DNA from: an uncultured Gammaproteobacteria bacterium
GTDB lineage: Bacteria > Patescibacteriota > Patescibacteriia > Magasanikbacterales > GWA2-37-8
Length of the DNA stretch: 64,000 nucleotides
Assembly: GCA_964355175.1 (NCBI GenBank)
Contig: CAYHBZ010000001.1
Location: 439,400-503,399 of the forward strand
Direction of reading: 5' to 3'
Shown here: positions 2,305 to 60,892 of the stretch, in pieces
Layout of the letters: each line of letters opens with the position of its first letter
Numbering within the stretch: position 1 is the stretch's first letter
Notes under the pieces: model-generated
The model's database searches: none
What the model was told of the DNA's origin: nothing
The model's input: only the letters and a program-made list of their open reading frames with translations
Made by a program: the position numbers and the translations under genes

Positions 2305-2802
2305 TTAGACGCCTTCGTGAATCACGATAGTTTTGCCTTTTGGCAAGGTCACTACCGCTTTTTTGTAATCACTGCGTTTGCCGTAATGATTACCGAAACG
2401 AATTGGCTTGCCCTGAACATTGATCATATTCACGGATAGTGGCTTCACGCCATAAACTTCGAAAACAGCTTGGCGCACAGCACCTTTGTTAGCACCGTTG
2501 GCTACTACAAAAATATATTGGTTTTCACTTTGTTTTACAGCACTTTTTTCAGTTACCAAAGCGCGCACCAAAATGTTGTTTTTAATTTTAGCCGCTTTTT
2601 TATCAGCTGGCGCCACTACTTCACCAGTAGCTGTTTCAGCTTTAGCGGTTTTGGTAGTTTTTTTGGCCGCAGTTTTAGCGGAAGTCTTTTTGGCAGGAGC
2701 AGTCTTTTCATCTTTTACCGATTTTTCTTCGGCTTTAGGAGCAGACTGTTTTTCCAAAACTTCTTCTTGCTTCTTTTTGGACCATCTATCAAGTAAACCC
2801 AT
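2305..2802 (-). CDS. rplW: 50S ribosomal protein L23 with about 70-aa Lys/Ala-rich N-terminal extension
   Basis: C-terminal about 95 aa is L23-like (NNILVRALVTEKS...KAVVTLPKG). N-terminal low-complexity K/A/T-rich region. The ORF abuts the rplD stop, which supports the long start. Confidence 0.8.
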   Translation of the reverse strand: MGLLDRWSKKKQEEVLEKQSAPKAEEKSVKDEKTAPAKKTSAKTAAKKTTKTAKAETATGEVVAPADKKAAKIKNNILVRALVTEKSAVKQSENQYIFVVANGANKGAVRQAVFEVYGVKPLSVNMINVQGKPIRFGNHYGKRSDYKKAVVTLPKGKTIVIHEGV

Positions 2803-3480: not shown

Positions 3481-4221
3481 TTAAGCGTTAGAAACTTCAG
3501 TGACTGGAGCTTCAACTACAGTAGATTCCTCTACTACAGGTGCTACAGGAGTTTGTTCCACTACAGGAGCGGATTTTTCTTCGGCCTTTGAATTTTTTGT
3601 AATTTTTAGTTCACCAGGTCCTTGGATAATAATCAAAGCATTGCGACCGCCTGGGACAGCGCCTTTGACATAAATTTCATTTGTTTCAGGATGCACTTCT
3701 ACTACTTCCAAATTCTTTACAGTTACCTGATCGCCACCCATACGACCAGCCATGCGCATACCTTTGAAAACGCGTTGTACACCACCGGCACCAATGGAAC
3801 CAGGAGCACGCAAGTTGTCTTTATGACCGTGAGATGCAGGACCACCACGGAAATGATGACGCTTCACAACACCGGCAAAACCTTTACCTTTACTAACACC
3901 AGTAACTTCAATTTCGTCACCAGCAGTAAACGTATCTACCAAAACCAAATCACCGCGGGTGAGACCCTCGGTTTTTTCTGTACTAAATTCTTTTAAAAAC
4001 TCACTGTTAGCCAAGTCTTTCAAATGACCAGCTTGAGGTTTGCTCAAACGCCATTCTTTCTTTTCACCAAAACCAAGTTGCACAGCGTCCTTCTTTACCA
4101 ATACCACGGTACAAGGTCCGGCCAAAACACGAGTTACTGGCACTACTTCACCGGTAGGTAAAAATACCTGTGTCATTGCGATTTTCTTTCCTAAAATGAA
4201 TTTCATAGTATTTTTTGTCAT
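3481..4221 (-). CDS. rplC: 50S ribosomal protein L3 with acidic/Val-rich C-terminal extension
   Basis: L3 core (MKFILGKKIAMTQVF...) plus a C-terminal tail of about 35 aa. An alternative start at the MKF codon near 4206. Confidence 0.9.
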   Translation of the reverse strand: MTKNTMKFILGKKIAMTQVFLPTGEVVPVTRVLAGPCTVVLVKKDAVQLGFGEKKEWRLSKPQAGHLKDLANSEFLKEFSTEKTEGLTRGDLVLVDTFTAGDEIEVTGVSKGKGFAGVVKRHHFRGGPASHGHKDNLRAPGSIGAGGVQRVFKGMRMAGRMGGDQVTVKNLEVVEVHPETNEIYVKGAVPGGRNALIIIQGPGELKITKNSKAEEKSAPVVEQTPVAPVVEESTVVEAPVTEVSNA

Positions 4222-4281
4222 TGCTTCCCAGACTAAAGGAAGGTAACTTAATTAAATTTCTAATCTTTTTTTAACAAAAAA

Positions 4282-4337
4282 CTAGAAGCAACAACACTGA
4301 TTAAAACCCCTTTGGTTTACAGTACTTTTGCTTCTAG
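4282..4337 (-). terminator. Attenuator-like intrinsic terminator in the rpsJ-rplC spacer
   Basis: Inverted repeat CTAGAAGCA...TGCTTCTAG (9-bp stem) with a nested AAACC/GGGTTT helix. On the minus strand it is followed by TTTTTTGTT. It lies about 60 nt upstream of the rplC start. Confidence 0.45.
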
Positions 4338-4548
4338 CCTTCTTTGCTTTCCAAAAAATTTGGTAGGCGGTATCTACTGTCACAAGACAGCAGATGAAAT
4401 AAGAATGGCTTTTAGTTTTTTATTGGTAAATATCTTTTTTTCTCCTGAGCTAAACCTGCCTGTGTAAATGTTTTTTGTTTTTTCTCCACGACTGAGTCGG
4501 GAGACAAATCTTATTTACTTAGACCTTTTAGCTAACTACTTGGTCCTT

Positions 4549-4577
4549 ATAATAGCACAATTCTTACGGTTTGTCAA
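4549..4577 (-). promoter_or_regulatory. Sigma70-like promoter immediately downstream of the rpsJ stop
   Basis: Minus strand reads TTGACA-17 nt-TATTAT. It would drive rplC and downstream genes through a leader of about 330 nt. Confidence 0.45.
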
Positions 4578-4591
4578 GGGTTTTACCCCTC

Positions 4592-4957
4592 TTACATTTT
4601 GATTTCTACATCTACACCAGCTGGCAAATTCAAACTCATCAAAGCATCTACACATTTTGGACCGGCATTGATGATATCGATCAAACGTTTGTGTACGCGC
4701 ATTTCGTACTGTTCGCGAGCGTCTTTGTGGACAAAGGTAGAGCGCAAAACAGTGAATTTGGTCTTTTCTGTAGGTAAAGGTACTGGGCCAATTACTTTGG
4801 CATCGTTGCGAGCAGCGGTGTCAATAATAGTCTTGGTGGCCTGGTCAATAATACGGTTGTCGTAAGCGCGGATTTTGATGCGGATACGAGTACCAACTTC
4901 TTCTTTTGCCTTTGGAGCTACTTTTTCAGCTTTAGTTGTAGGATTTGTAGTTGTCAT
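4592..4957 (-). CDS. rpsJ: 30S ribosomal protein S10 with about 20-aa N-terminal extension
   Basis: S10 core [17 protein letters not shown]... Confidence 0.9.
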
Positions 4958-4996: not shown

Positions 4997-5036
4997 GAAA
5001 AAATCATAAGGGGGGGGTGTTTTTCAACACCTCCCC
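4997..5036 (-). terminator. tuf terminator
   Basis: GC hairpin GGGGGGGTGTT/AACACCTCCCC. A U-run follows on the minus strand. Confidence 0.45.
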
Positions 5037-5043
5037 AAATAAT

Positions 5044-6234
5044 TTATTTATTGATTTTTGTTACTACACCAGCGCCGACGGTACGACCACCTTCGCGGAT
5101 AGTGAATTTCATTTTGTCTTCCATAGCTACTGGAGTGATCAATTTGATTTTCAAATTGACGGTATCACCAGGCATAACCATTTCTACACCAGCTGGCAAT
5201 TCAAGTACATCACCAGTTACATCGGTAGTACGGATATAGAACTGTGGTTTATAGCCTTTGAAGAATGGCTTATGACGACCACCTTCTTCTTTGGACAAAA
5301 TATAAACTTCTGCATCAAATTCAGTATGAGGAGTGATAGAACCGATTTTGGCCAAAACCATACCGCGTTCTACTTCTTCTTTTTTGGTGCCGCGCAACAA
5401 GATACCAGCGTTATCACCGGCCTGACCTTCTTTCAAAGATTTGTTAAACATTTCAATACCAGTAACGATAGTCTTCATTGGTTCTTCACGTAGACCAACG
5501 ATAGCAATTTCATCACCGATTTTGATCATACCACTTTCAATACGGCCAGTTACTACTGTACCACGACCTTCGATGGAGAATACATCTTCAACAGGCATCA
5601 AGAATGGTTTGTCAGTAGCGCGCTGTGGCTCTGGGATATATTCATCCAAAGTCTTGATCAAGTCCATTACTGGCTTGGAAGCAACTTCGTCGGTTGGGCT
5701 TTCCAAAGCTTTCAAAGCGGAACCGCGGATAATAGGAGTGGTGTCGCCAGGGAAACCATATTTGTTCAAAAGATCGCGAACTTCAACTTCTACCAATTCA
5801 ACCAAATCTGGATCGGCCATGTCGATCTTGTTCAAAAATACTACGATGTAAGGCACACCTACCTGACGAGCAAGCAAGATATGTTCACGAGTCTGAGGCA
5901 TCGGACCATCAGCGGCAGATACTACCAAAATAGCACCATCCATCTGAGCAGCACCGGTGATCATATTTTTCACATAGTCAGCGTGACCTGGACAGTCAAC
6001 GTGAGCATAGTGACGTTTTTCGGATTCGTATTCAACGTGAGCGGTAGAAATGGTAATACCACGAGCTTTTGACTCAGGAGCTTTATCCAAATCGCCTACG
6101 CCCTTATTCTGGGCAATACCGCCATGAGCGGCCAACACCTGCAAAATAGCAGCTGTCAAAGTTGTCTTACCGTGGTCAACGTGACCAATTGTACCTACGT
6201 TCAAATGGGGCTTGGTTCTTGAAAACTCAGCCAT
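5044..6234 (-). CDS. tuf: Elongation factor Tu
   Basis: 396 aa. [22 protein letters not shown] motifs. Confidence 0.97.
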
Positions 6235-6355
6235 AGGATTAAATCTTCACGGCTCTACACCCGAGTGGTCGGGGCAGATTTTTGTCCAGCCGTTGTTTTT
6301 GTATATATATATTAATAAAAGAAACACGCTAACCAAATAGTTGATTAGCGTGGGC

Positions 6356-6384
6356 ATTATATCAGGGTTTATTGGTTTTGGCAA
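6356..6384 (-). promoter_or_regulatory. Putative tuf promoter
   Basis: Minus strand reads TTGCCA-17 nt-TATAAT. A stem-loop CACGCTAA/TTAGCGTG sits at the predicted transcript start. Confidence 0.4.
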
Positions 6385-6427: not shown

Positions 6428-7000
6428 TTACTCAACAGGCTCAAGGTAGAATTTTTCCTCTTCTCCTTCGGGTAAATCAGACAAATCTTCCTCGGCAAAA
6501 TTGGTATTTGGGGTCGCTTCCGAAGCGGGCGATATTGGAGCAATATATTTGACTGGTTCAGCAGGTGGCTCTGGAATAGGCTCGGACATTGGGGCAAATT
6601 CAATCTCGTCTTCTAACTCTGAATCTTCTATTTCTTGGCTAAATTTAGCCAAATTTTCTGGTTCTTGGAGTTTTTCCGGTAAATCTTGCTCTTTTTCTTC
6701 TTCTTTGTCCATTTCCTCTTCTTCCAAATCCGGCTCTATTTCCGGCTCTTCATATTGAATTTGAGGCAAAGGGCTCTTTTTTTCATGTTGCTCCTGCCAG
6801 CGGTTGATGTCGTGATTCAGACGGCTGAGCATCTCTTCTTCGGCCAAATTTTCTACTTCGGTAGTAGTATTGAGCAAATCCTCGTACTCATCCAAATTCA
6901 TCACTACCATCGCTTCATCGGTATCTCTATCTAGTACCACAAATCTATCGCCAGTGCGTTTGACCAATCGGATTATTCTGTCCAGTTGTTTCTGTTTCAT
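6428..7000 (-). CDS. Phd/YefM-like N-terminal domain protein with long acidic C-terminal tail
   Basis: The start is placed at MKQKQLDRIIRLV because a TTGACT-17-TAGAAT promoter ends about 15 nt upstream. The N-terminal 45 aa (GDRFVVLDRDTDEAMVVMNLDEYEDLL) resemble the YefM antitoxin fold. The remaining about 140 aa are E/D/P-rich. Confidence 0.5.
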   Translation of the reverse strand: MKQKQLDRIIRLVKRTGDRFVVLDRDTDEAMVVMNLDEYEDLLNTTTEVENLAEEEMLSRLNHDINRWQEQHEKKSPLPQIQYEEPEIEPDLEEEEMDKEEEKEQDLPEKLQEPENLAKFSQEIEDSELEDEIEFAPMSEPIPEPPAEPVKYIAPISPASEATPNTNFAEEDLSDLPEGEEEKFYLEPVE

Positions 7001-7021
7001 AAAAACTAGGTTATATATTTT

Positions 7022-7050
7022 TATTCTATATAAGCAGGGACAAATAGTCA
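7022..7050 (-). promoter_or_regulatory. Promoter for the YefM-like gene
   Basis: Minus strand reads TTGACT-17 nt-TAGAAT. Confidence 0.45.
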
Positions 7051-7171
7051 ACTCAGAAAAATATTTTTCTTCGTACTCCTACATTCTATCTGGCTTTATC
7101 TTTTATGTCTAGATTTGTAAAACGAATTACGGCTCTTAATAAGACGAAAATAACTAAACCAAAGCCTCAGC

Positions 7172-7801: not shown

Positions 7802-9550
7802 TTATGGTGTAACCAAATTTACTTTTACTTTTGCCCCACCCTTACCACTGTTACCTTGGTAAGTGAGCTCTACATACCCACCATTTTGTTTGAGCGCATA
7901 TTTTTTCTTGGCATTTACTTTGAGCACTACATTGGTGCTCTTGGCGCCATTTAATTTGAGCCAAACATAAGTGTTATTAAATTTCACTACTTGAAATTTG
8001 AAAACACTACCGTCAAATTTAAACCAGTTATTTTTACAAATAGTATAGATACCGTTGCCGCCCTGTTCATTGGTACAACTATCGCCGGTAGCATCCAGCA
8101 TAGTAGTATTGGAATCTACTTTGATCAGAGCGCGACCTTCGTCTCCTACACCCAAGTAAGTCAACATTACATATTTACCAGGTTTGTTGGTGACATAAAA
8201 AGTTTCTGGCTCATTGATCACCAGATCAGCATCATCTTCACTAAGATTGCTCAATAACACACTGGCGGTTTCACCATCATGATCCACTACTTTAACTTTT
8301 ACACCACTCCAGTAATGATCCACGGCATAGCCGGTACAAACAATGAAATTTACATTGCCGCCGGTGATATCCGAACAAGCTGGCAGAGATGAAGCGGAAT
8401 TGCCTGCGGTACTAGTAGCACTGCCGGCAGTATTAAATTTGAAGTAAGTATAATCAGACCACTGACCGGTAGAGCCGTTTGGAAAGACTGGCAACACACG
8501 AGTGCGGAATTGATTATCTCCGGCCAAAGGCGAAGTAGTGAAACTACTGGAATATGTTTTCCATTTAAAACTATCGGACCAATCGGCACCAACACCACAA
8601 TGATCACAAGCTACTTCCACCATGTAATTGTTGGCATTTTTTACTTCCAACCAATTGATAGTGGCAATACGAGGAAAATTGGTAAAAACAGAATTATTTA
8701 AAGGCGAAGTAATCGTAGTCTTGGATGACAAATCATAGCTTGAAATTGTTTCGGCTTTTTTGGCCTGACAAGCACCGGCTACACAGCCATTTTCACATTT
8801 ATACCACTGAGTATGTACATAATTTTTGCCATTGCCGGAGCTACAGTGAGTTTCGGCGATATAGTCACCGGAAGTTTTATTTTTATCGCCAATATAGGCA
8901 CCACAGCTATCACCATAAGTACCAGCAATACCGCTCACTTCATCATTACCGGTAGCAGTACCATAAACATAGTTATTGAAATTATCGCTTTCAGAACAAG
9001 TAGCGGCTGGAGCTACAGCCGGCTTGCCTTTACAAGCACCGGCCGAGCAACCATATTCACATTTATACCATTGAGTATGAACATATGGATTGGAGCTAGA
9101 ACCACTACAATATTTTTCAGCGATGAAATCGCCAGAAACTTGCCCTTGGTCACCCACATAATTTCCACAAGAATCTTGATAAGAACCAGCCACCTGACTG
9201 ACTTCATCTTTTCCGGTAGCGACACCAACAACATTATAATTCAAGCCACTTTCAGAATCACTGCAAGTAACTACCGGTGCGGCCGTACCAGTACAAGGTT
9301 TCCAATCTACGCGATATTGGGTAGCGGAAAGACAAGCCATAGTGTAATCTTTCAAACCATTACCGGCATCACGACATTCCGAAGTCAAAAAAGCGCTATA
9401 TGATCCATTCACTATCTGAATATCCTTGCCTACCTGAGTACATTTATCTACATTTACCGGATTCCAACCCACTTCCGGCAAAGCTGCTGACGCCATCTTT
9501 GGCGCCAAAGCTACCAGCAGTGCGGCCAGGAGCCAAACACTTTTTTTCAT
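7802..9550 (-). CDS. Secreted cysteine-rich protein with two tandem about 80-aa repeats
   Basis: Signal peptide MKKSVWLLAALLVALAPKMASA. Tandem repeats at aa 96-176 and 185-264 share CS(D/E)S...GDSCG...YVHTQWYKCE(N/Y)GC.AGAC. Native-like composition. Confidence 0.6.
   Translation of the reverse strand: MKKSVWLLAALLVALAPKMASAALPEVGWNPVNVDKCTQVGKDIQIVNGSYSAFLTSECRDAGNGLKDYTMACLSATQYRVDWKPCTGTAAPVVTCSDSESGLNYNVVGVATGKDEVSQVAGSYQDSCGNYVGDQGQVSGDFIAEKYCSGSSSNPYVHTQWYKCEYGCSAGACKGKPAVAPAATCSESDNFNNYVYGTATGNDEVSGIAGTYGDSCGAYIGDKNKTSGDYIAETHCSSGNGKNYVHTQWYKCENGCVAGACQAKKAETISSYDLSSKTTITSPLNNSVFTNFPRIATINWLEVKNANNYMVEVACDHCGVGADWSDSFKWKTYSSSFTTSPLAGDNQFRTRVLPVFPNGSTGQWSDYTYFKFNTAGSATSTAGNSASSLPACSDITGGNVNFIVCTGYAVDHYWSGVKVKVVDHDGETASVLLSNLSEDDADLVINEPETFYVTNKPGKYVMLTYLGVGDEGRALIKVDSNTTMLDATGDSCTNEQGGNGIYTICKNNWFKFDGSVFKFQVVKFNNTYVWLKLNGAKSTNVVLKVNAKKKYALKQNGGYVELTYQGNSGKGGAKVKVNLVTP
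8759..9265 (-). repeat. Tandem intragenic repeat, 2 x about 240 nt, encoding the Cys-rich modules
   Basis: Protein-level repeat mapped back to DNA coordinates. Confidence 0.5.
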
Positions 9551-16606: not shown

Positions 16607-16643
16607 AAAGACGCCTTTTGATGAAGGCGTCCTACATTGTGCA
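16607..16643. repeat. 37-bp direct repeat, right copy, overlapping the tRNA-Arg 3' end and its terminator
   Basis: See the left copy. The last 4 nt overlap the tRNA 3' terminus. Confidence 0.6.
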
Positions 16644-16711
16644 CTCATTAGGAGTCGAACCTAAATTTTCGGCTTCGCAGGCCAATGTCCTATCCATTGA
16701 ACGATGAGTGC
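16640..16711 (-). tRNA. tRNA-Arg (anticodon GCG)
   Basis: Manual cloverleaf. Acceptor stem GCACTCA/TGAGTGC. D-loop AATGGATA. Anticodon stem TTGGC/GCCGA with loop CTGCGAA. T-arm TTAGG-TTCGACT-CCTAA. Discriminator A. 72 nt. Confidence 0.8.
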
Positions 16712-17274: not shown

Positions 17275-17291
17275 ATTGAAAATTTGACCAG

Positions 17292-17365
17292 TGGATGATA
17301 CTGGATTTGAACCAGTGACCTTTGCAATGTGAATGCAACGCTCTAACCAACTGAGCTAATCATCC
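17292..17365 (-). tRNA. tRNA-Val (anticodon CAC)
   Basis: Manual cloverleaf. Acceptor stem GGATGAT/ATCATCC. D-arm GCTC-AGTTGGTTA-GAGC. Anticodon stem TTGCA/TGCAA with loop TTCACAT. T-arm ACTGG-TTCAAAT-CCAGT. Discriminator A. Confidence 0.75.
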
Positions 17366-60718: not shown

Positions 60719-60892
60719 AGTTGGAAAATTTATCTAGAGCGGTGCGAGGGATTCGGCCCGATGACCACCCAGCAACCCCCTAAACCGGGGTGCTAATTCC
60801 GACCCTATTTAGGGAAAGATTTGTCCGTTTTAAACGGAAACAGTTTGCTTGTAGTCTGTTATCTTTCTTTATTTAGATAACGGATTTTTTTG
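60719..60892 (+). ncRNA. Candidate structured ncRNA or riboswitch-like leader of about 170 nt, family not recognised
   Basis: Bounded by its own promoter and an intrinsic terminator (CTGTTATCT-ttctttattt-AGATAACGG plus T7). Internal hairpins CCCTA/TAGGG and TCCGTTT/AAACGGA. G/C-rich paired segments GGCCCGATGACCACCC...CCGGGGTGC. No ORF. Confidence 0.35.

Follow-up and report, generated by a model that had tools for sequence, protein, structure and literature searches.

A conserved structured leader between rpsJ and rplC of Patescibacteria and its probable role in attenuation of the rplC ribosomal protein operon

The rpsJ-rplC spacer and its flanking genes

The window, by which is meant the whole 64,000-nucleotide stretch of DNA analysed, carries on its minus strand the gene order tuf, rpsJ, spacer, rplC, rplD, rplW, rplB, rpsS and rplV, the last towards the window edge; Pfam assigns EF-Tu, S10, L3, L4, L23, L2, S19 and L22 within this cluster. 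rplC is the first gene of the regulated operon, with rplD, rplW, rplB, rpsS and rplV behind it. The spacer is seen on the minus strand where it had been placed, downstream of rpsJ and ahead of rplC-rplD, and the genes upstream and downstream of it are the following.

tuf (EF-Tu), 5044-6234, minus strand, open reading frame with Pfam match
rpsJ (S10), 4592-4957, minus strand, open reading frame with a match to Pfam Ribosomal_S10 (E = 2.6e-34), last gene of the tuf-rpsJ unit
rplC (L3), open reading frame 3481-4221 with Pfam match, minus strand; start placed at ATG 4203, giving 3481-4203

The 370-nt non-coding spacer of the original prediction is real, but its length comes to about 388 nt because the start codon of rplC is most likely ATG 4203 (MKFILGKK) and not ATG 4221, where the public annotation of L3 (P0001, 246 aa) begins. 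ATG 4203 is favored because ATG 4221 belongs to a conserved stretch of the RNA, GCAAUGAC, and in the relative L112 does not share the reading frame of rplC; the annotated start thus appears to lie 18 nt upstream of the true one, within this stretch. The claim that the spacer holds no open reading frame of 60 aa or more is borne out: the longest within it has 51 aa, and two of 68 aa merely clip its edges from the flanking genes. No leader peptide or small conserved reading frame was found in the spacer, where 1-nt indels in conserved stretches disrupt any common frame. The accompanying statement that rpsJ and rplC are normally adjacent holds for E. coli, whose gap is 32 nt, but is overstated, since gaps in Bacteroidota range from ~30 nt to >1 kb. 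Long rpsJ-rplC gaps occur there in L009, L058, L069, L073, L076 and others, with ~410 nt in Flavobacterium and ~1.5 kb in Kaistella. In the str-operon arrangement of cyanobacteria, Thermotoga and archaea rpsJ is found with tuf, and rplC opens a new transcription unit; with such tuf-rpsJ linkage elsewhere the present locus shares the gene order, and the conserved leader RNA is the new element.

Several other features of the cluster may be recorded here. Three of its ribosomal proteins are extended: L23 (gene 2305-2802, minus strand) by ~75 N-terminal residues, S10 by ~25 N-terminal residues, and L3 by a C-terminal tail of ~45 residues rich in Ala, Val, Glu and Pro. Upstream of tuf lie two minus-strand open reading frames without Pfam match, 6428-7051 (207 aa) and 7802-9550 (582 aa), and fusA was not found upstream of tuf in the window. 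Between tuf and rpsJ, at ~5008-5033 on the minus strand, a GC-rich hairpin, GGGGAGGUGUUGAAAAACACCCCCCC, is followed by a U-rich stretch and may cause partial termination or processing inside the tuf-rpsJ unit.

Promoter, leader fold and terminator

The elements of the spacer, all on the minus strand and listed in the direction of transcription, are given below.

Short hairpin GGGGUAAAACCC, after the rpsJ stop and overlapping the -35 box, seen in the sequence
Sigma-70-type promoter of the rplC operon, 4549-4577: -35 TTGACA 4577-4572, 17-nt spacer with TG, -10 TATTAT 4554-4549
5' domain, 4448-4533, from folds and covariation
Outer stem P0 of the 5' domain, AGCUAAA 4533-4527 with UUUAGCU 4454-4448 and GUCU 4524-4521 with AGGC 4461-4458, from the fold
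Helix P1, GUAAAU 4518-4513 with AUUUAC 4469-4464, from fold and covariation
Invariant internal loop, AAGAU 4512-4508 opposite AAAAC 4474-4470, from conservation
Variable hairpin P2, 4507-4475, from the fold
Purine linker AGGAGAAA, 4439-4446, GGAGA(A) in most relatives, from alignments
Central domain, 4336-4411: AAGCCAU 4411-4405 and variable hairpins 4404-4340 enclosed by P3
Helix P3, AGCC of AAGCCAU with GGCU 4339-4336 at the terminator foot, from folds
Intrinsic terminator (attenuator), 4276-4339: lower stem CUAGAAGCA/UGCUUCUAG, then UUUUUU, then GUUAA
Optional pre-start hairpin GUUACCUUCC...GGGAAGCAAUGAC, 4217-4247, from the consensus fold; contains the spurious ATG 4221

The promoter begins 14 nt past the rpsJ stop codon, and the TTGACA-17-TATTAT that had been pointed out just after this stop is indeed there at 4577-4549, scoring 11/12 and having an extended -10 TG. 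Weak promoter-like matches are no commoner in the spacer than in shuffled sequence (5 found vs 5.9 expected), and the real evidence for the predicted promoter is its conservation. The pattern TTGAC[AT]-N16-18-T[AG]NNNT, in the form cTTGACA-17-TAnnAT, is found in 61 of 79 distinct relatives and again in 4/4 further loci retrieved by L3 protein (L202-L205); the exceptions that lack it belong mainly to a GC-richer subgroup (L004, L006, L087 and others). From the position of the -10 box the transcription start would fall at ~4544-4541. A promoter-like site is also found ahead of tuf, TTGCCA-17-TGnTATAAT (11/12; 6325-6384, minus strand), directly followed, ~90 nt ahead of the tuf ATG, by a hairpin of 12 bp that has a U-rich tail, and this constitutes a second promoter-into-hairpin leader in the cluster.

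The inferred transcription start and the U-run bound a stretch of 273 nt whose fold has z = -6.2, a stability that none of 200 shuffled sequences attains. Within the 5' domain, helix P1, the internal loop AAGAU/AAAAC and hairpin P2 make up what is here called module A, the candidate protein-binding site. Among relatives P1 has 5-8 bp and P2 varies freely in sequence and in length (7 to >60 nt). Pairing at P1 and the base of P2 is maintained through compensating changes, e.g. GUAAAU/AUUUAC, CAGAU/AUCUG, CUUAAU/AUUAAG, CACAU/AUGUG and GAGAAG/CUUCUC. Covariation, put forward with the original prediction as a check on the leader, is thus evident in the 5' stem: in a 57-sequence MAFFT alignment of module A 86.7% of cells are paired as against 66.4% in shuffles and at most 45% in slid registers, there are 130 double-change cells, and the observed values are reached by 0/500 shuffles, these controls not being probabilities and the aligned sequences being related to each other. 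A model-based alignment agrees. The whole-spacer MAFFT alignment is poor for distant relatives, and motif-anchored extraction was used instead.

No conserved reading frame comes after the purine linker that follows the 5' domain, a 1-nt indel (CUAAAAGCC vs CUAAAGCC) disrupting any common frame in the alignment of relatives. P3, which encloses the central domain, is predicted in 77/83 folds of truncated transcripts; its core AGCC/GGCU carries covarying extensions such as AGCCUU/AAGGCU, CCCU/AGGG and CCUUUAAG/CUUAAAGG. In all, the near-invariant nucleotides of the leader number ~40 and are those of AAGAU, AAAAC, GGAGA, AAGCC and GGCUAGAAGCA.

The stem with nested helix that had been noticed before rplC was recovered as GGCUAGAAGCA...UGCUUCUAG followed by UUUUUU; its upper helix is nested and its dG is ~-26 kcal/mol. 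A stable hairpin with an immediate U-run stands on the sense strand between the promoter and the first codon, as in an intrinsic terminator. Its end is 73 nt from the rplC start in the window. The lower stem, CUAGAAGC/GCUUCUAG, is kept in sequence among relatives and the upper stem covaries, a combination that suggests recognition beyond simple pairing. The motif CUAGAAG is present in 8/9 relatives retrieved by L3 protein, and only these nine protein-retrieved loci count for this purpose, since the metagenome set was gathered with a terminator pattern and terminator invariance there is circular. Only 7-20 nt separate the end of the U-run from the rplC ATG in L178, L100, L189, L003 and L145, so that no downstream promoter fits and rplC can be reached only by read-through.

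A conserved antiterminator sequestering AGAAGCA was not found in folds of truncated transcripts. The only competitor of the terminator is P3, which in the promoter-bearing group shares with it the C and U of two basal pairs by the U-run; P3 of the GC-rich subgroup pairs through the GGG before them and does not compete with the terminator. The inverted repeat CTAGAAGC/GCTTCTAG was also considered as a DNA operator and was rejected, the spacing of its arms varying from ~29 to >130 nt and its inner stem covarying as RNA.

Beyond the terminator, the 3' strand of the optional pre-start hairpin ends 13 nt before the rplC ATG. This hairpin takes the forms GUUAU-CUUCC...GGAAG-CA-AUGAC or GUUAA-GACC...GGUC-CGC-UAAC and covaries (UA/CG/AU at alignment columns 358-401, CG/AU/GC at 360-399); other relatives have variants, GUUAAGACC..GGUCCGCUAAC, and it is missing where the spacer is short.

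Conservation and distribution among relatives

Related loci were retrieved by two routes, (a) by L3 protein alone and (b) by a metagenome scan for GGCTAGAAG-N20-50-CTTCTRGTTTTT. A genome scan by route (a) yielded five Patescibacteria loci (L001, L002, L003, L004 and L006, L003 being from Candidatus Magasanikbacteria) and 75 loci of other phyla. The five have rpsJ-rplC gaps of 280-460 nt and motifs recognisably in common with the window. Four more loci (L202-L205), found through L3 homologues of 63-98% identity, have the same promoter, motifs and terminator; the closest is L205, its L3 being 98% identical to that of the window. These nine relatives (53-98% identity; Magasanikbacteria and other Patescibacteria) share one layout, consisting of the promoter, a covarying stem with AAGAU/AAAAC, GGAGA, the AGCC/GGCU helix and the terminator, with L004 and L006 lacking the promoter. 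In L203 the leader stands ahead of rplC though rpsJ is not upstream, and the leader thus belongs to rplC.

Route (b) gave at least 120 metagenome contigs that match the terminator pattern. Among the 120 matches listed, ~90 are correctly oriented between rpsJ and rplC, at a distance of 8-175 nt from the latter, and show the layout of the nine relatives as well; the rest are in unrelated contexts. The L3 proteins of the rpsJ-rplC metagenome loci are 41-88% identical to that of the window. Those homologues that carry a name are Candidatus Magasanikbacteria. With R1, a covariance model built for module A, the 64-kb window yields a single match (4460-4522; 46.2 bits, E = 4.6e-7), as does each rpsJ-rplC metagenome locus. 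R1 also matches all nine L3-retrieved loci at E <= 0.45, eight of them at E <= 0.002, L004 being marginal at 20.5 bits. No module A was found by R1 in the pattern matches outside the rpsJ/rplC context, nor in the 75 non-Patescibacteria loci save for one marginal match (E = 0.19); the Bacteroidota loci with long rpsJ-rplC gaps lack it by the same model. Comparison with related genomes, which had been proposed as the means of judging the spacer, therefore shows promoter, leader fold and terminator to be kept across Patescibacteria over L3 identities of 41-98%. In being a structured RNA that is kept in the 5' UTR of a ribosomal protein operon, and in this context throughout, the element agrees with what is generally expected of a ribosomal protein leader.

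The GC-richer subgroup (L004, L006, L087, L089, L098, L104, L106, L122, L163, L195 and others) is distinguished by a variant loop, GAAGAAAGAUC...GAAAACCUUC, with AAAGAU in place of AAGAU, by having no spacer promoter, and by a long perfect hairpin right after rpsJ. Its leader is presumably transcribed from upstream, which would make the attenuator internal to an rpsJ-rplC transcript and give a second architecture. A separate observation concerns about ten related contigs (L003, at 1-624; L100, L132, L134, L162, L168, L178, L189, L192 and L200) that have a 16S gene within a few kb of the S10 cluster. A 23S gene was found in none of the fetched loci, these contigs included, and 16S without 23S in the same stretch suggests unlinked rRNA genes.

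Relation to known leaders and the control of the rplC operon

What is understood of feedback control of ribosomal protein synthesis comes for the most part from E. coli and Bacillus, and most of the RNAs that take part in it are lineage-specific. In E. coli the S10 leader responds to L4, which together with NusA promotes termination without a classical antiterminator, by way of portions of the terminator and of a hairpin that immediately precedes it (PMC3616713). The likeness to this attenuator that was originally drawn stands as a functional analogy and fails as homology of sequence or structure. Shared are the several hairpins ahead of L3-L4-L23-L2..., the terminator with a U-run close to the first regulated gene and the conserved hairpin region just upstream of the terminator (PMC3616713); a classical antiterminator, which the E. 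coli leader does without, did not show in the truncated-transcript folds of the present one either. The positions differ, the E. coli leader preceding rpsJ and extending with its last hairpin over the S10 start codon, whereas the element described here follows rpsJ, has its own promoter and precedes rplC; its conserved elements are the AAGAU/AAAAC loop, AGCC/GGCU and CUAGAAGC. The E. coli family is moreover restricted to Gammaproteobacteria and the present element is found in Patescibacteria. Neither the nhmmer profile of the leader (A4) nor R1 finds anything in the E. coli S10 leader region (hairpins HD-HG), a direct comparison made because no model of Rfam 15 matches the E. coli S10 leader itself.

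An Rfam scan, likewise proposed at the outset, did not place the leader in a known family: with Rfam 15 no match reached the gathering threshold in the spacer or in 12 homologous loci, and a scan of the spacer at E <= 10 gave weak chance matches. The leader resembles the Firmicutes L10, L13, L19, L20 and L21 leaders in its succession of promoter, protein-binding fold (a candidate one here), intrinsic terminator and ribosomal protein operon, but folds and operons differ, and the sole Rfam signal for such a leader, L20_leader, reaches 18.5 bits against a gathering threshold of 58.7 and is on the wrong strand. A candidate L4 leader of Archaeoglobi lies directly upstream of rplC-rplD-rplW-rplB, with L4 assigned by precedent (Eckert & Weinberg 2020, PMC7247131). 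It is similar in being a structured leader directly before the rplC operon, and different in being archaeal and in having another motif. Archaea are not known to use bacterial intrinsic terminators. On these comparisons the best reading of the element would be as a new ribosomal protein leader family, analogous but unrelated to the E. coli L4/S10 leader.

The architecture first suggested, that of an own promoter leading through a structured leader into a terminator ahead of rplC-rplD, is supported by conservation, by covariation and by the read-through geometry. The spacer can accordingly be read as the promoter and attenuation leader of the rplC operon in a Magasanikbacteria-like member of the Patescibacteria, most likely serving autogenous control by a ribosomal protein that the operon encodes, a reading to which a probability of roughly 0.6 is given. 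Transcription would start at ~4542, just past the tuf-rpsJ unit, and a folded leader of ~270 nt would be made that ends at the intrinsic terminator. Expression of the operon (L3-L4-L23-L2-S19-L22...) would then be set by read-through of RNA polymerase, i.e. by transcription attenuation. A ribosomal protein encoded downstream, when in excess over rRNA, would bind module A at AAGAU/AAAAC and may also bind the sequence-conserved terminator foot and P3. Its binding would favor termination, as does that of L4 with NusA at the E. coli S10 leader.

Partial or conditional termination, the latter proposed by analogy, is favored because a strong conserved promoter firing straight into a strong conserved terminator would otherwise be senseless, and control by a ribosomal protein because a helix-loop-helix such as module A, with its invariant loop, and a conserved terminator foot are typical of protein sites. 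L4 is the prior guess for the regulator, because the same reasoning applies as for the Archaeoglobi rplC leader candidate (PMC7247131). A mimic of rRNA was not apparent: the E. coli rRNA operon (16S, 23S and 5S) is matched neither by R1 nor by the leader nhmmer profile, R1 has no match in 16S genes on related contigs, and no persuasive candidate emerged when E. coli 16S/23S were scanned for a helix-flanked AAGAU...AAAAC pattern. Obvious mimicry of rRNA is missing from many accepted leaders (PMC7247131).

Other explanations of the same features have to be weighed against autogenous control. The spacer might be a constitutive structured 5' UTR acting in stability, processing or translation initiation without feedback, its leaky terminator fixing the ratio of rpsJ to the downstream genes. 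That no antiterminator was found is in keeping with this, as is the apparent disuse of a Shine-Dalgarno sequence at tuf, rpsJ and rplC, so that 5' UTR structure could matter for initiation, and to keep the transcription units apart no more than a fixed attenuator would be needed. Yet the loop and the lower terminator stem are invariant down to an L3 identity of ~45-55%, beyond what a passive stem needs, and a dedicated strong promoter into a fixed terminator would be wasteful; the idea is judged unlikely, if still deserving of some weight. Slightly less credence is given to a riboswitch-like sensor of a small molecule or ion (alarmone, polyamine or Mg2+) that sets read-through of the same terminator. 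The multi-domain conserved fold with its ~40 near-invariant nucleotides, a terminator that could act as expression platform, and the negative searches of E. coli rRNA for a mimic would agree with such a sensor. However, the context is exclusively that of a ribosomal protein operon, module A, a simple helix-loop-helix whose hairpin varies freely, is of a type usual for protein sites, the truncated folds give no sign of a terminator/antiterminator switch, and no Rfam riboswitch matches in the spacer. Improbable to a marginally greater degree is the broader proposal of a new regulatory RNA class, either riboswitch-like or bound by a CPR-specific factor, that gates the L3-to-L22 and downstream operon on a physiological signal; if true, it would represent a control of ribosome synthesis particular to the reduced-genome, episymbiotic Patescibacteria.

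The strong promoter, strong terminator and stable fold (z = -6.2) could also describe an independent small RNA gene of ~267 nt between rpsJ and rplC, with rplC transcribed separately. This seems decidedly improbable: the closeness of U-run and rplC ATG in several relatives (7-20 nt) leaves no promoter space, in the subgroup without a promoter the same element presumably forms part of the rpsJ-rplC transcript, the element is always ahead of rplC in the same orientation even without rpsJ, and neither 6S, SRP, tmRNA, RNase P nor any other Rfam gene family matches. A terminated leader could nonetheless accumulate as RNA. Finally, GGCUAGAAGCA (4329-4339) paired to AGCCAU (4405-4411) resembles E. 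coli 23S 1062-1078, GGCUUAGAAGCAGCCAU, the L11/thiostrepton loop, and the terminator foot and P3 might therefore mimic helix 43 of the GTPase-associated centre and be bound by L11 or L10 encoded elsewhere. But with an estimated ~0.1 near-matches per 11-mer expected by chance in 4.5 kb of rRNA the likeness is probably fortuitous; a counterpart of helix 44 is missing, the profile and covariance-model searches of E. coli rRNA were negative, and the regulatory sign is wrong, since binding of the unpaired loop would oppose termination. Very little weight is attached to it.

In full-text literature searches no account of a ribosomal leader from CPR/Patescibacteria came up. This radiation accounts for a large share of bacterial diversity, is for the most part uncultured, and has small genomes and unusual ribosomes. 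While the principle of autogenous attenuation is familiar, the element is a widely conserved and apparently undescribed regulatory RNA of a poorly studied group. It could become a new Rfam family, its AAGAU/AAAAC loop offers a candidate RNA-protein recognition motif that can be tested, and its sequence features are evidence for the use of sigma-70-type promoters and intrinsic terminators in attenuation in Patescibacteria. Elsewhere in the window, tRNA-Arg(GCG) and tRNA-Val(CAC) genes are present at 16639-16711 and 17291-17365, both on the minus strand, and a SAM riboswitch (RF00162, 57.2 bits) is found at 60727-60825 on the plus strand, with a TTGACA...TGnTAnnnT promoter-like site ahead of it (60683, plus strand).
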